Source: Pseudomonadota bacterium
Lineage (GTDB): Bacteria; Bdellovibrionota_B; Oligoflexia; Oligoflexales; CAIYRB01
NCBI GenBank assembly: GCA_031416315.1
Contig: JANOTL010000075.1
Span: 1-64,000 of the forward strand
Length of the DNA stretch: 64,000 nucleotides
Direction: 5' to 3'
In this document: piece after piece, positions 39,774 through 63,953 of the stretch
How positions within the stretch are numbered: position 1 is the stretch's first letter
How the letters are laid out: each line of letters begins with the position of its first letter
Program-made: the position numbers and the translations under genes
The notes under the pieces: model-generated
What the model was told of the DNA's origin: nothing
Database searches by the model: none
The model's input: the letters and a program-made list of their open reading frames with translations, nothing else

Positions 39774-41129
39774 ATGTCTGAAACGACGGCGACTCCGAAG
39801 TCCAAGAAAGCCGCGCAAGCCAAGCAGGAAGACGAGGCCGCGCTGGCGCAGGCCCCGGAGACCAACTCCGACGTTCCCGAGATCAATCTCAAGGAGCTGA
39901 AAGAGAAGCGCATTCCCGACCTGAACCGGGTCGCGAAAGAGCTCGGCATCGAAGGCGCCGCCAACATGCGCAAGCAGGAGCTGATCTTCAGCCTTCTGCA
40001 GGCCCAATCCGAGCGCGGCGGCGTCATCTACGGCGAAGGCGTCCTCGAGACCCTCCCCGACGGCTTCGGCTTCCTTCGCGCCCCCGACTACAACTACCTT
40101 CCTGGTCCGGACGACATCTACGTCAGCCCGTCGCAGATCCGACGCTTCAACCTGCGCACCGGCGACACGATCTCCGGCCAGATCCGCCCTCCCAAAGATT
40201 CCGAGCGTTATTTCGCGCTCTTGAAGGTCGAAAACGTCAACGGCTCCGCGCCCGACCCCGACTTCGAGAAGATCATCTTCGACAACTTGACGCCTCTCTA
40301 CCCGATGGAGAAGTTCAAGATGGAGTGGACGACCAAGAACCTCTCCACGAGGATCTTGGACCTGCTTGCGCCGATCGGCAAAGGCCAGCGCTCGCTCATC
40401 GTCGCCCCGCCGCGCACCGGCAAGACGATCCTTCTGCAAGACATCGCCTCGGCCCTGGCGAAGAACCATCCGGACGTCGTCCTGATCGTCCTTCTCATCG
40501 ACGAGCGTCCCGAAGAAGTCACGGACATGGAGCGCTCCGTGCGCGGCGAGGTCATCAGCTCGACCTTCGACGAGCCTGCCCAGCGCCACGTCCAAGTCGC
40601 CGAGATGGTGATCGAAAAAGCCAAGCGCCTCGTCGAGCACAAGAAGGACGTCGTCATCCTTCTCGACTCCATCACGCGCCTCGCCCGGGCCTACAACTCC
40701 GTCGTCCCCCCCTCGGGCAAGATCCTCTCCGGTGGCGTCGACTCGAACGCCCTGCACAAGCCGAAGCGCTTCTTCGGCGCCGCGCGCAACATCGAGGAGG
40801 GCGGCTCCTTGACTATCATCGCGACCGCGCTTATTGATACGGGCTCGCGGATGGACGAGGTCATCTTCGAGGAGTTCAAGGGTACCGGCAACATGGAGCT
40901 TCACCTCGACCGGAAGCTCTCGGAAAAGCGCACCTTCCCGGCCATCGACATCAACAAGTCGGGCACCCGGAAGGAAGATCTCCTGCTCCCGAAAGACGTG
41001 CTGAACCGCATGTGGATCCTCCGGAAGCTCCTGCAGCCGCTCAACACGGTCGATGCCATGGACTTCCTCTTGGACAAGATGGAAAAGACGAAAACCAACG
41101 GCGAGTTCATCGACTCGATGAACGGCTGA
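39774..41129 (+). CDS. rho: Transcription termination factor Rho
   Basis: [44 protein letters not shown]. Confidence 0.99.
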
Positions 41130-48743: not shown

Positions 48744-48814
48744 ACCGCAAAGGGCGCAAAGAACGCGAAGGTAGGGTATGAAAAACTCTTCGCGCTCTTT
48801 GCGCCCTTTGCGGT
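48744..48814. repeat. 71-bp palindromic element, copy 1 (intergenic)
   Basis: 27-bp arms (ACCGCAAAGGGCGCAAAGAACGCGAAG and its inverse, 26/27 match) with a 17-nt spacer. Confidence 0.9.
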
Positions 48815-57266: not shown

Positions 57267-58238
57267 ATGACCGCGCTGCTCACCGTCAAAAATCTGAAGA
57301 AGTTCTTCCCGATCAAGGGCGGGATCCTCGGCCGCACCGTCGCCAACGTGCACGCCGTCGACGATGTCTCGTTCACTCTGCGCAAGGGCGAGACGCTCGG
57401 CCTCGTCGGCGAATCTGGCTGCGGCAAGTCGACGCTCGGCCGCACTTTGCTGCGCCTCTACGAGCCGACCTCGGGCTCGATCGAGTTCGACGGCGTCGAC
57501 CTGCTCAAGCTCTCGACCCAAGAGCTTCGCGCGAAACGCCGCGACATGCAGATCATCTTCCAAGACCCGTTCTCGTCGCTCAACCCGCGCATGACCATCG
57601 GCGCCATCCTCGCTGAGCCCTTCGCCATCCACAAGCTCGGCACCAAGTCCGAGATCGAGGGCAAGGTCAAAAAGCTCCTCGAGACCGTGGGCTTGCCCTC
57701 CGAGGCCGACGGCCGCTACCCGCACGAGTTCTCCGGCGGCCAGCGCCAGCGCATCGGCATCGCGCGCGCCATCGCCTTGAACCCGAAGCTCGTCGTCGCC
57801 GACGAGCCGGTGTCGGCGCTCGACGTGTCGATCCAGTCGCAAATCTTGAACCTGCTCGTCGACCTGCGGAAGAAGTTCAATCTCTCGTACGTCTTCGTCG
57901 CGCACGACCTGGCCGTGATCGAGCACATCTCCGACGTCGTCGCCGTGATGTACCTGGGTAAGATCGTCGAGTACGCCTACGGCGACGATCTCTACAAAGG
58001 ACCGAAGCATCCGTATACGCGCGCGCTGATCTCTGCGATCCCGATCCCGGACGTCGACTACAAAAAGGATCGGCAGATCCTCAAGGGCGACGTGCCGAGC
58101 CCGATCAATCCACCCTCGGGCTGCTACTTCCACCCCCGTTGCCCGATGGCGACCGAGAAATGCAAGGTCGAGGCGCCCGCGACGCGCAACGTCGGGACCG
58201 AGAAAAGGCCGCACCTGGCCGCCTGCCACTATGCCTGA
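57267..58238 (+). CDS. oppF: Oligopeptide/dipeptide ABC transporter ATP-binding protein (OppF/DppF)
   Basis: [35 protein letters not shown]. Confidence 0.93.
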
Positions 58239-59310
58239 GATCGACGTCTGCCTGACCGGCGGCGGCACGGCGGGACACGTCACGCCTCACTTCGCGCTCG
58301 TCCCCGGGATGAAGGCGCGTGGCTGGGGTATGTTCTACGTCGGCGGCGCGGGCCTGGAGAAGCCGTTGGTCGAGGCGCAAGGAATCGCCTTCAAGACGAT
58401 CGCGACGGGGAAGCTACGGCGCTACCTTTCGCTCAAGAACCTGGTCGACTTGTTTAAGATCGCCTTCGGGCTCGTGCAGGCGCTCCTGATCCTGATCGCG
58501 CGGCGGCCCAGCGTCGTGTTCAGCAAGGGCGGCTTCGTGTCGGTGCCGGTCGCTTGGGCGGCGTGGCTTTTGCGCATCCCGGTCGTGTCGCACGAGAGCG
58601 ACGTCACGCCGGGGCTCGCGACGAAGCTGATCGCGCCCTTGGCGAAGAAGATCGTGTTCACCTTTGCGGAGACGGCGAAGTACCTTCCCGCCAACGCGGA
58701 ACGGGTGGGGACGCCGGTGCGGGCGGAGCTGTTCGCAGGAGACCGCGCCAAGGGGCTCGCGCTTTGCGGCTTCGACCCGAGCGAGCCCTTGCCGACCTGG
58801 CTCGTGATGGGTGGGAGCCAGGGCTCGCAGCGCTTGAACGACGCCTTGCTCGCGATCCTCCCCGAGCTGGCCAAGACGGCGCGGGTGATTCACCTCACGG
58901 GCAAAGGGAAGACACTTGCGTATGCGCATCCGCGGTACCGCGGGTTCGAGTTCGTCACGGCGGAGCTACCTGACTTATACGCAGCAAGCGATCTCGTCCT
59001 GAGCCGCGCGGGAGCGAACTCGATCTTCGAGTTCCTGGCGCTGCGCAAGCCCATGCTTTTGATTCCGCTCGAGATCGGCAGCCGCGGGGACCAGGTGGTG
59101 AACGCCGCCTCGTTCGTGAAGAGCGGCTGGGCCGAGGTCTTGCGCGAGACGGAGCTGACGGCGGCGAGCCTCGCGATGAAAATGGGCGAGCTCGAGGCGG
59201 GACGTGAGGGGATCATGGCGAAGCAGCAGAGCTTCGACGGGCGAGATGCGGCGGAGAAGATCCTCGGAGTGCTCGAGGCGGTGGCTCGCCCGCCCTCGGC
59301 GCCGCGCTGA
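58231..59310 (+). CDS. murG: Lipid II GlcNAc transferase MurG
   Basis: [35 protein letters not shown]. Confidence 0.93.
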
Positions 59311-60575
59311 TGCTCGGGCAAAGCCTCGCCGGAATCCGAGTGCTCGATGCGTCGCGAGTCCTGGCCGGCCCATTCGCCGGCCAGATTCTTGCCGACCTCG
59401 GCGCCGAGGTCCTAAAGATCGAGGACACGAGCGAGGGCGACGAGACGCGCGGCTGGGGCCCGCCGTTTGGGGAAGACGGCACGAGCGCCTACTTCGCGTC
59501 GTGCAACCGCGGCAAGAAGGGCGTGACTCTAAATTTGAAGACCCCGCGCGGGCGGGAGCTTCTGCACGCCTTGGCGGCGAAGTGCGACATCGTTCTGCTC
59601 AACTTCCGCGCGGCTTCGGCGGCGGGGCTCGGGGCCACGCCGGAGGCGCTCTTGGCGGCGAACCCGAAGGCGGTGATCGTGACGCTCTCTGGTTACGGGA
59701 GCGGACCGGCTTGGGGCGCGAAGCCCGGCTACGATTTCGCGGTCCAGGGCATCAGCGGGATGATGGCCGCGACCGGGCCGAAGGACGGAAGGCCCCACAA
59801 ATTCGGCGTCGCGATCGCAGACCTTGTGACCGGACACTACGCGGCGATCGCGGCCTTGGCCGCATTGCGCGAGCGCGACCGGTCGGGCCAGGGCTTAGTC
59901 GTCGAGCTTGCGCTCGTCGACTGCGCGGTCGCGACGATGGCGAACGTCGCGCAGGCGCATCTGACGACGGGAAAGGCGCCGGCGCGGGTGGGCAATGCGC
60001 ATCTGCAGATCGTGCCGTACGAGATGTTCGAGACGGCGGATGGGTGGTTGATCTTGGCGGTGGGGAATGATCGGCAGTGGCGGGAGTTTTGTGGCGTGGT
60101 GGCGGGGCCGGAAGGCATTTTAACCGCAAAGGGCGCGAAGGACGCGAAGGGGGTGGAAAGAACCTCCTTTGCGCCCTTCGCGCCCTTTGCGGTCAAATTG
60201 CATGACATTCGCTACGCTAGAAACCAGGACCGCGTTCGCTTTCGGGACGAACTCGTCCCGCAAATCGCAGGCGTGATGCGCCTGGCTTCCACCGCCGCCT
60301 GGCGCCAGGCCCTCGACGCCGCGGGCGTCCCCAACGGCCCCGTCTGGACCCTGCCCGAGCTCTTCGCCTCAGACCTCGCCACCGAGCGGAATTTTCGCAT
60401 CTTCGCGCGCCGTGCCGACGGGTCCGAGGTAGCATTGGTGCGTTCACCTCTCGTCGAGTCGCTCGACCCCGCGCCGCCGCCGGCGCGTGGCGAGCATACC
60501 GACGAGGTCTTGTCGGGGATCTTGGGACTTGAATCCGGCGCCATCGCGCGCCTCAGAGCAGAGGGAGTCGTATGA
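59310..60575 (+). CDS. CaiB/BaiF family CoA-transferase carrying a palindromic insertion
   Basis: LAGIRVLD, LAGPFAGQILADLGAEV, NRGKK, GYD, ADLVTG, GEHTDEVL. Confidence 0.93.
   Translation: MLGQSLAGIRVLDASRVLAGPFAGQILADLGAEVLKIEDTSEGDETRGWGPPFGEDGTSAYFASCNRGKKGVTLNLKTPRGRELLHALAAKCDIVLLNFRAASAAGLGATPEALLAANPKAVIVTLSGYGSGPAWGAKPGYDFAVQGISGMMAATGPKDGRPHKFGVAIADLVTGHYAAIAALAALRERDRSGQGLVVELALVDCAVATMANVAQAHLTTGKAPARVGNAHLQIVPYEMFETADGWLILAVGNDRQWREFCGVVAGPEGILTAKGAKDAKGVERTSFAPFAPFAVKLHDIRYARNQDRVRFRDELVPQIAGVMRLASTAAWRQALDAAGVPNGPVWTLPELFASDLATERNFRIFARRADGSEVALVRSPLVESLDPAPPPARGEHTDEVLSGILGLESGAIARLRAEGVV
60123..60193. repeat. 71-bp palindromic element, copy 2 (inside a CDS, in frame)
   Basis: ACCGCAAAGGGCGCGAAGGACGCGAAG - 17 nt - CTTTGCGCCCTTCGCGCCCTTTGCGGT. 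Confidence 0.9.
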
Positions 60576-61051
60576 AGAAGCTGATGAAGATGTTGTCGTT
60601 GACGATCGGGGCCGCTGCATTGGTCACGGGTTGTCTGCACGCGCTGGAGTCGAACGAGGTCACTCGTCTGACAACCTGCAAGAACAACGATTTGAAAAAG
60701 ATCCGCAAGAACCTCTTGCTCGCGGGCTACGAGATCAAGAACGAGTCGGACTCGGACCTCACCACCGACTACAAGCAATACGCCGGCTACGGCGGCGACC
60801 GGAACCTGCGCCGCATCACGGTCGTGAAGCTCGACGGCAAAGACTTCAAGTTCAACGTGCGCCAGAAGTCGAAGTCGATCCAGCGTAACAACAACCAGTA
60901 CTCGAACGGCAACAACAGCAAGAAGGGCGGCACGACGATCAACATCGACGCTTCGCAGCCGATCGAGGTCGAGAACGACTTCGACCAGGAGTACTACAAG
61001 GAGCGGATTGCCCAATACGAGCAAACGCAGCGCGAAGTCTGCGGAAGTTAA
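60572..61051 (+). CDS. Hypothetical lipoprotein
   Basis: Lipobox VTGC; SD GAGGGAG. Confidence 0.8.
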   Translation: MKKLMKMLSLTIGAAALVTGCLHALESNEVTRLTTCKNNDLKKIRKNLLLAGYEIKNESDSDLTTDYKQYAGYGGDRNLRRITVVKLDGKDFKFNVRQKSKSIQRNNNQYSNGNNSKKGGTTINIDASQPIEVENDFDQEYYKERIAQYEQTQREVCGS

Positions 61052-63926: not shown

Positions 63927-63953
63927 ACCGCGAAGGGCGCAAAGGGCGCAAAG
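63927..63953. repeat. Solo arm of the 71-bp palindromic element (copy 3)
   Basis: ACCGCGAAGGGCGCAAAGGGCGCAAAG; no matching arm in the remaining 47 nt. Confidence 0.8.

Follow-up and report, generated by a model that had tools for sequence, protein, structure and literature searches.

Introduction

In-frame palindromic inserts are already known from Rickettsia and from the REP families of repeats. Rickettsia palindromic elements (RPEs) are described as sequences of about 105–150 bp, nearly half of which lie within open reading frames (ORFs) in R. conorii (PMC10969869, PMC3184786). REP sequences and REPINs are gene-less dispersed palindromes that are found mostly downstream of genes and sometimes as intragenic inserts of 20–30 residues (PMC3733652). 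Bacterial MITEs are characterised in PMC3184786 as short, non-coding elements with terminal inverted repeats and a stable hairpin, presumably mobilised in trans. The protein family PDDEXK_3/GxxExxY (PF13366, TIGR04256) is listed with unknown function and has a phylogeny with multiple transfers; the accessible sections of the same study make no mention of flanking repeats or mobility of the family (PMC3424549).

Here we describe a palindrome in a CoA-transferase gene of an Oligoflexales bacterium, located in a window of 64,000 nucleotides (the whole stretch of DNA analysed, positions 1 to 64,000 of contig JANOTL010000075.1). Like an RPE, it is read in frame in an intact enzyme gene, and its conserved peptide recurs in unrelated proteins. 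Unlike RPEs, it has a 71-bp core in an 81-nt insert, is built of 9-nt units, belongs to a family that is mostly intergenic and spread over many phyla, and is linked to a PD-(D/E)XK nuclease. The first-pass annotation of this DNA had called the element RPE-like, a label that does not hold for its length (71–81 bp), its tag or its distribution (a confidently called gene contains only one of the 19 palindromes). With REP/REPIN-RAYT systems it shares dispersed gene-less palindromes downstream of genes and a partner gene bracketed by its own repeats. However, it has no GTAG/CGTC tag (its ends are T-rich and then read ACCGC), its long arms consist of tandem units, its copies number in the tens, and the bracketed partner is GxxExxY/PDDEXK_3 rather than a Y1 transposase. 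No repeat-flanked Y1 transposase gene was found in the genome (93% complete), the one weak PF01797 match lying on a contig without copies of the family. Terminal inverted repeats, a stable hairpin, the lack of coding capacity of its own, presumed mobilisation in trans and an internally deleted nuclease cassette on contig C7 are reminiscent of MITEs. In contrast to MITEs, the copies show no detected duplication of the target site, and in the searched sequence their ends are shared with no IS transposase. The ends are common to GxxExxY cassettes. The element acts like an RPE at this locus and like a REPIN or MITE overall, yet it is a member of none of these classes, because it differs from RPEs in length and intragenic share, from REPs in tags and RAYT, and from MITEs in target duplication.

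What is new is a cross-phylum family with a specific candidate mover, a member of a nuclease family listed with unknown function, and that function becomes testable in this way. The GxxExxY link and a switch of GC skew around the palindromes are points that go beyond the first-pass annotation.

The palindrome and its host gene

The host gene occupies positions 59310–60575 on the + strand and encodes an intact family III (CaiB/BaiF) CoA-transferase of 421 aa with the invariant residue D171. The palindromic core at 60123–60193 is 71 bp long and pairs at 29 of 32 arm positions. Its left arm (60123–60149, + strand) consists of three 9-nt units without T and is translated as TAKGAKDAK. The right arm (60167–60193, − strand) again comprises three 9-nt units, lacks A on the + strand and is translated as FAPFAPFAV. 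The region 60110–60210 has a fold energy of −40.3 kcal/mol (z −9.25), which none of 200 shuffles equalled. The palindrome is in frame within the open ORF of 421 codons and is translated as TAKGAKDAKGVERTSFAPFAPFAV. Pairing, fold z-score, open frame and Pfam match (below) confirm the earlier description of a 71-bp palindrome inside an intact CaiB/BaiF ORF. The whole element had also been proposed to be readable without stops. This is true of the arms, which are stop-free in all frames because one has no T and the other no A, but not of the spacers and ends, which often carry stops. About half of the frames are open across whole elements (0.52 vs 0.36 in shuffled sequence in this genome and 0.44 vs 0.23 in GTDB genomes).

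The CoA-transferase gene is part of an operon-like run (58231–61051), in which it overlaps the upstream gene of a MurG-like glycosyltransferase and a downstream ORF of 159 aa with no Pfam match.

The host ORF matches the Pfam family CoA_transf_3 over the full domain (E 3.5e-100), and its predicted fold matches solved family III transferases (TM 0.88). The AlphaFold model has a mean pLDDT of 93, falling to 61–62 over residues 271–290 in the loop after helix 254–265. The insert is thus placed in a predicted low-confidence loop of an otherwise confident model, in line with the loop position that had been expected. D171, which we take to be the catalytic aspartate of family III CoA-transferases, is invariant among the homologues. 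Identity to the closest homologue (P0002, 83%) per 20-residue block is 16–20 before the site and 12, 16, 19, 18, 18 and 19 after it. In view of the invariant D171 and the high identity on both sides, the gene looks maintained despite the insert, which is likely a tolerated passenger in the enzyme.

Length and ends of the insert

Protein alignment reveals that the segment bearing the insert is 69 residues long here and 42 residues long in 115 of 119 homologues, the remaining four having 41, 44, 45 and 46 residues. Because the homologues are 27 residues shorter, the net insert is 81 nt, which matches the core with a 5-nt T/A-rich end on each side (60118–60198, ends approximate; 27 codons). The insert is also absent from all nine alignable orthologues of related genomes. 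Together with the 115 homologues at 42 residues, this bears out its expected absence from orthologues. The gap in the homologues stands, but the size given earlier, 78 nt or about 26 residues, becomes 81 nt and 27 codons: removal of 78 nt between the two TT dinucleotides leaves one residue more than in the 115 homologues.

The homologue P0002 has a loop of its own that is four residues longer, so that the gap to it is 23 residues. The two flanks of the site can be aligned to a relative's contig (run X4), in which 171 nt are replaced by 102 unalignable letters (net 23 codons). Taken together, these two comparisons indicate that the surroundings of the site have diverged too and that the ends of the insert are approximate. 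A metagenome scan for a close relative found none, the best match being 54% over part of the sequence. A target-site duplication at this copy was considered and rejected, as the GCAT repeat in question implies an 85-nt, out-of-frame insert.

A dispersed repeat family in the genome

The strict arm pattern has 35 matches in the genome and 0–1 in three shuffles, and in a control against the reversed pattern the arm matches numbered 44 vs 0. A weight matrix derived from 38 arms of this genome, which carry T at position −3 in 38 of 38 cases and at −4 in 31 of 38, finds 60 sites (0 in a shuffle). The best 52 of these 60 sites merge into 35 loci, namely 19 inward palindromes, 15 solo arms and one outward pair; the insert therefore belongs to a dispersed repeat family, as had been supposed. 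An Rfam search gave no match above the gathering score and 20 sub-threshold hairpin matches.

Two further copies are located in the window. A sister palindrome of 71 bp and of the same subtype (48744–48814) is intergenic between two + strand genes and has the weakest skew flip of the set (D 0.10), and a solo arm of the family (63927–63953, + strand) is situated 10 nt beyond a stop codon on the − strand.

With genes called by a simple purpose-made caller (5,444 genes), the dispersed palindromes are mostly intergenic and downstream of genes, and 18 of the 52 arms are located 6–13 nt past a called stop codon. The CoA-transferase copy is the sole palindrome of the 19 inside a confidently called gene. 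A weak ORF of 80 codons is overlapped by one further palindrome, and there are solo arms in a methyltransferase gene, at the start of one gene and in an ORF with a low score. The solo arm at G000:C170:18186 (L183) belongs to the N-terminal part of a 474-aa methyltransferase ORF, in which it encodes TAKDAKGAK. Four genes next to elements have usable orthologues, whose stop codons fall at almost the same position although no element is present. The search for target-site duplications at 17 loci was negative (mean direct repeat 3.06 vs 3.20 in the null, p 0.85), although mutated flanks could hide old short ones. One copy with 12 arm mismatches, C159, was left out of the target-duplication and frame tests and of the stop-distance and four-fold-site counts.

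Distribution in other phyla and association with GxxExxY nucleases

A scan of 4 of the 64 parts of GTDB gave 120 arm loci, about 2,400 stretches being estimated, in Chloroflexota, Acidobacteriota, Verrucomicrobiota, cyanobacteria, proteobacteria, archaea and others. They comprise 37 short palindromes, 65 solo arms, 15 wider pairs and 3 loci beside a GxxExxY gene; at the other 117, no such gene is present in flanks of 300–800 nt. At one locus (L134), a complete GxxExxY ORF takes up precisely the interval between two AAAG-subtype arms, the subtype of the insert itself, and in the relative G009 a broken GxxExxY gene lies between inward arms (L025). Arms thus bracket a PDDEXK_3 gene at these two loci, and related arrays are present at L001, L219, L220 and L221. 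Seven loci found by means of their GxxExxY gene are readable on both sides, and they show four clear inverted arrays and three weaker ones, a count made with no shuffle control. The gene family itself occurs in only 7 of the 104 searched genomes of the phylum. The only GxxExxY gene of the present genome has arms of another subtype that point outwards, and it may therefore not be the mover of the CoA-transferase copy. No other gene family recurs beside solo arms, except for one pair among 262 ORFs. In the literature, within incomplete coverage of subscription papers and supplements, nothing was found that pairs GxxExxY/PDDEXK_3 with such repeats, and the family is apparently undescribed in print.

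In-frame copies

Among 75 GTDB loci with long flanks, three have an arm or a palindrome inside a Pfam-supported ORF; of 26 palindromes at GTDB loci with 800-nt flanks, one is inside a Pfam-supported gene. One of the three is a whole palindrome in an Mfd gene (L129), read in the same frame as the CoA-transferase copy. The Mfd loop has 40 residues in the L129 protein (P0121) and 21–23 residues in 30 of the 80 homologues that could be parsed (out of 120; 40 could not). Decayed versions of such a peptide occupy this position in another six homologues, giving seven of 80 with loops of the TAK/TAE...FAV/SAV type; the DNA was seen for L129 alone, and the other six, which were judged by peptide, may trace back to a small number of insertions. 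This Mfd loop is an insertion hotspot (L129/P0121, P0122, P0124, P0125, P0127, P0135, P0139), where homologues carry, besides the peptide of the family, different repeat-like peptides. A word-based protein search with the insert peptide, a weak test, matched only the protein itself among 5 candidates.

The suspicion that the same peptide would turn up in an unrelated protein is supported by Mfd, and the repeat evidently leaves lasting loops in enzymes (CaiB-type, Mfd). However, the idea that the element serves mainly to add loops to the proteins of this lineage is not supported: one palindrome in 19 is in a confidently called gene, about half of the frames are open, and the lengths of GTDB copies are spread over the three frames (12/13/12) with no bias to multiples of three. 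Because frames are half open, lengths are unbiased and intragenic copies are few, the in-frame copies look like rare survivors of selection, not the speciality of the element.

GC-skew switch around the palindromes

The + strand is G-rich to the left and C-rich to the right at all 18 palindromes with both flanks, and the effect fades by 130–190 nt. The mean skew flip at 17 loci is 0.46, compared with 0.09 ± 0.05 in controls matched for junction type, and none of 100,000 draws reached 0.46. Both counts omit C25 (contig end), the matched test also omits C93 (no right-hand gene), and C159 is kept in both as well as in the two-fold-site comparison below. At four-fold sites 12–72 nt from the element, on the strand running to it, genes pointing at the element have C 0.13 and G 0.73 (controls 0.43 and 0.41), and genes pointing away have C 0.19 and G 0.76 (controls 0.31 and 0.51). 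Two-fold sites near elements show a C-to-T shift (0.36 vs 0.14 further inside). Gene orientation and amino-acid composition were rejected as artefactual sources of the skew on the strength of the four-fold sites and the matched junctions.

In the CoA-transferase gene, the G-rich left flank (59940–60110, + strand, codons 211–267) has four-fold counts of G28:C3, compared with G12:C23 in the same-genus orthologue L003 (Fisher p 3e-6). The C-rich right flank (60210–60389, + strand, codons 301–360) has G7:C28 compared with G16:C26, which is not significant (p 0.13). This flip in the middle of a gene (D 0.58) is reached by one of 2,670 interior controls. Four gene ends chosen for strong skew have G:C counts of 17:0, 11:0, 10:0 and 14:2, whereas 11 element-free orthologues of these ends total G62:C73, one of them having 16:2; the orthologue loci L207, L208, L213, L215 and L218 were unused or have no usable gene end.

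The switch is not a general property of the family, a possibility rejected because only 20 of 37 GTDB palindromes are positive and the flip is absent on average in other phyla. It is weak at the copies of relatives, and the Mfd copy has no clear flip (left 10:11, right 8:23). Growth of the skew with the age of the element was likewise rejected (against arm decay, rho −0.17, p 0.50). Genome-wide (G000) there are 116 G-left/C-right switches, far above the opposite polarity; 9 of them are at this repeat family and 107 elsewhere, and 45 are at convergent junctions. At several of the 116, other hairpins or tandem repeats are present. A milder G shift is seen at ordinary convergent gene ends (15% strong, compared with 2% of interior windows), and it is smaller before an intrinsic terminator. 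Since the flip is limited to the lineage and most peaks are not at the family, it points to a process in this lineage with a strong effect at these hairpins, not to the repeat alone. No description of a skew switch at palindromes was found in the literature, again with incomplete coverage of subscription papers and supplements.

Possible origin of the insert and of the skew

Starting from the repeat family and its dispersal, the arms around nuclease genes, the negative result for target-site duplications, the in-frame position and the conserved host flanks, we favour, at a probability of about 0.65, the reading that the insert is a copy of a widespread foldback of 9-nt units, mobilised in trans by GxxExxY and tolerated in the enzyme, and that the skew comes from nicked or broken hairpins. 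The copy, itself gene-less, would be mobilised by a GxxExxY (PDDEXK_3) nuclease that may cut at the arms or on their behalf, and host repair would then fix it without a duplication. Most intragenic copies would be purged, and that in the CoA-transferase may have survived because its arms are stop-free, its net length is a multiple of three and its site is a loop. It is further possible, with somewhat less confidence, that nicks or breaks recur at the hairpins of this lineage and that resection leaves the 3'-ending strands single-stranded. The exposed strand would lose C, to G at four-fold sites and to T at two-fold sites, which would create the G-left/C-right switch.

Loss of C on 3'-ending strands after 5' resection is a principle that the polarity of the skew fits, and resected breaks in yeast and cancer carry strand-coordinated mutation clusters. 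The likeness is that C is lost on the strand running 5'–3' to the site and that the strand switches there. In contrast to the yeast and cancer clusters, the present case is bacterial, only 130–190 nt wide and seen as composition, not as observed mutations. The genome encodes DnaE2, and its rho gene lies at 39885–41123 in the window. Mutation on single-stranded DNA around cut hairpins may be the better explanation of the skew, because the polarity fits, DnaE2 is present and selection for termination does not readily account for the mid-gene copy. This copy is the most useful case, since it separates mutation from termination signals. If the skew is mutational, small hairpins in some bacteria would determine which mutations arise nearby on each strand, and this would bias codon usage, protein drift and skew-based analyses. 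A bolder version, in which GxxExxY drives undescribed transposase-free mobile hairpins whose recurrent breaks rewrite about 150 nt on each side with strand-coordinated loss of C, seems doubtful to us. It would represent a bacterial counterpart of break-associated clustered mutation that reshapes silent sites and nearby residues of the enzyme entered.

The skew could instead have been selected for bidirectional Rho-dependent termination, with the palindromes retained for a role in termination or pausing. C-rich RNA is what Rho loads on, and the RNA past the hairpin is C-rich on either strand. Rho is present, 18 of 52 arms follow stop codons by 6–13 nt, nine of 18 palindromes lie between convergent genes, and the genome as a whole shows a G shift at convergent gene ends, which is smaller at those ahead of an intrinsic terminator. 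However, the switch is equally strong (D 0.58) in the middle of a conserved co-directional gene, where termination would be harmful, and tandem junctions are as strong as convergent ones. The chosen gene ends also differ from their element-free orthologues as given above (G62:C73 in total, with the one exception of 16:2), and we regard selection for termination as unlikely. An order of events in which the element prefers pre-existing skew switches, at break-prone sites or sites of colliding transcription, would make the skew a cause, not a scar. The 107 of 116 peaks without a family copy agree with it, as does the remodelled loop of the closest relative (171 nt to 102 in the X4 contig, four extra residues in P0002), but that loop might just as well be what a lost copy left behind, and the left flank of the same-genus orthologue is not G-rich (12:23 vs 28:3), though this orthologue is only ~67% identical. 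Such a preference appears quite improbable.

As to what moves the repeat, a RAYT/IS200-type transposase as in REP/REPIN systems could do so, or replication slippage or template switching could make the repeats, with GxxExxY hitch-hiking. The 117 of 120 GTDB arm loci without a nearby GxxExxY gene and the tandem expansion of 9-nt units at some loci would be explained in this way. We nevertheless give it rather poor odds, as the sole Y1 transposase match (C10:56127) is on a contig without any of the 35 loci, neither GTAG nor CGTC tags are present, and no other gene family recurs beside solo arms (one pair in 262 ORFs). That the element is adapted to in-frame insertion and adds peptide loops in the manner of RPEs is very unlikely. 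Stop-free arms, the excess of open frames (0.52 vs 0.36 here, 0.44 vs 0.23 in GTDB) and the loops at one site in seven of 80 parsed Mfd homologues are what it would lead one to expect, yet a Pfam-supported gene is entered by only one of 19 palindromes here and one of 26 in GTDB (800-nt flanks), lengths are distributed 12/13/12, and the insert peptide, in the weak word-based search, matched only itself among 5 candidates. Mobilisation by GxxExxY followed by selection on the products remains our preferred reading of the insert.

Variant arrangements of the arms

Several loci show other arrangements. At L025 (G009:C18:15–522), the GxxExxY cassette is broken by a deletion together with an apparent transposase fragment, and both arms are intact. 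An internally deleted copy of the GxxExxY cassette of the present genome (L184, G000:C7, ~330–500) has kept both outward arms and adjoins a further, unrelated palindromic repeat. At L141:801–1464, the arms flanking a GxxExxY gene share one orientation, and a tandem run of arm plus spacer lies upstream. Nested arms, with a shorter outer arm before the main arm, are present at L034, L036, L037, L039, L041, L053, L056 and L059 in related genomes, which suggests either that elements inserted into older copies or that the end has two tiers. At G000:C71:3169–3212, the 9-nt unit forms a long tandem expansion without the terminal arm motif.
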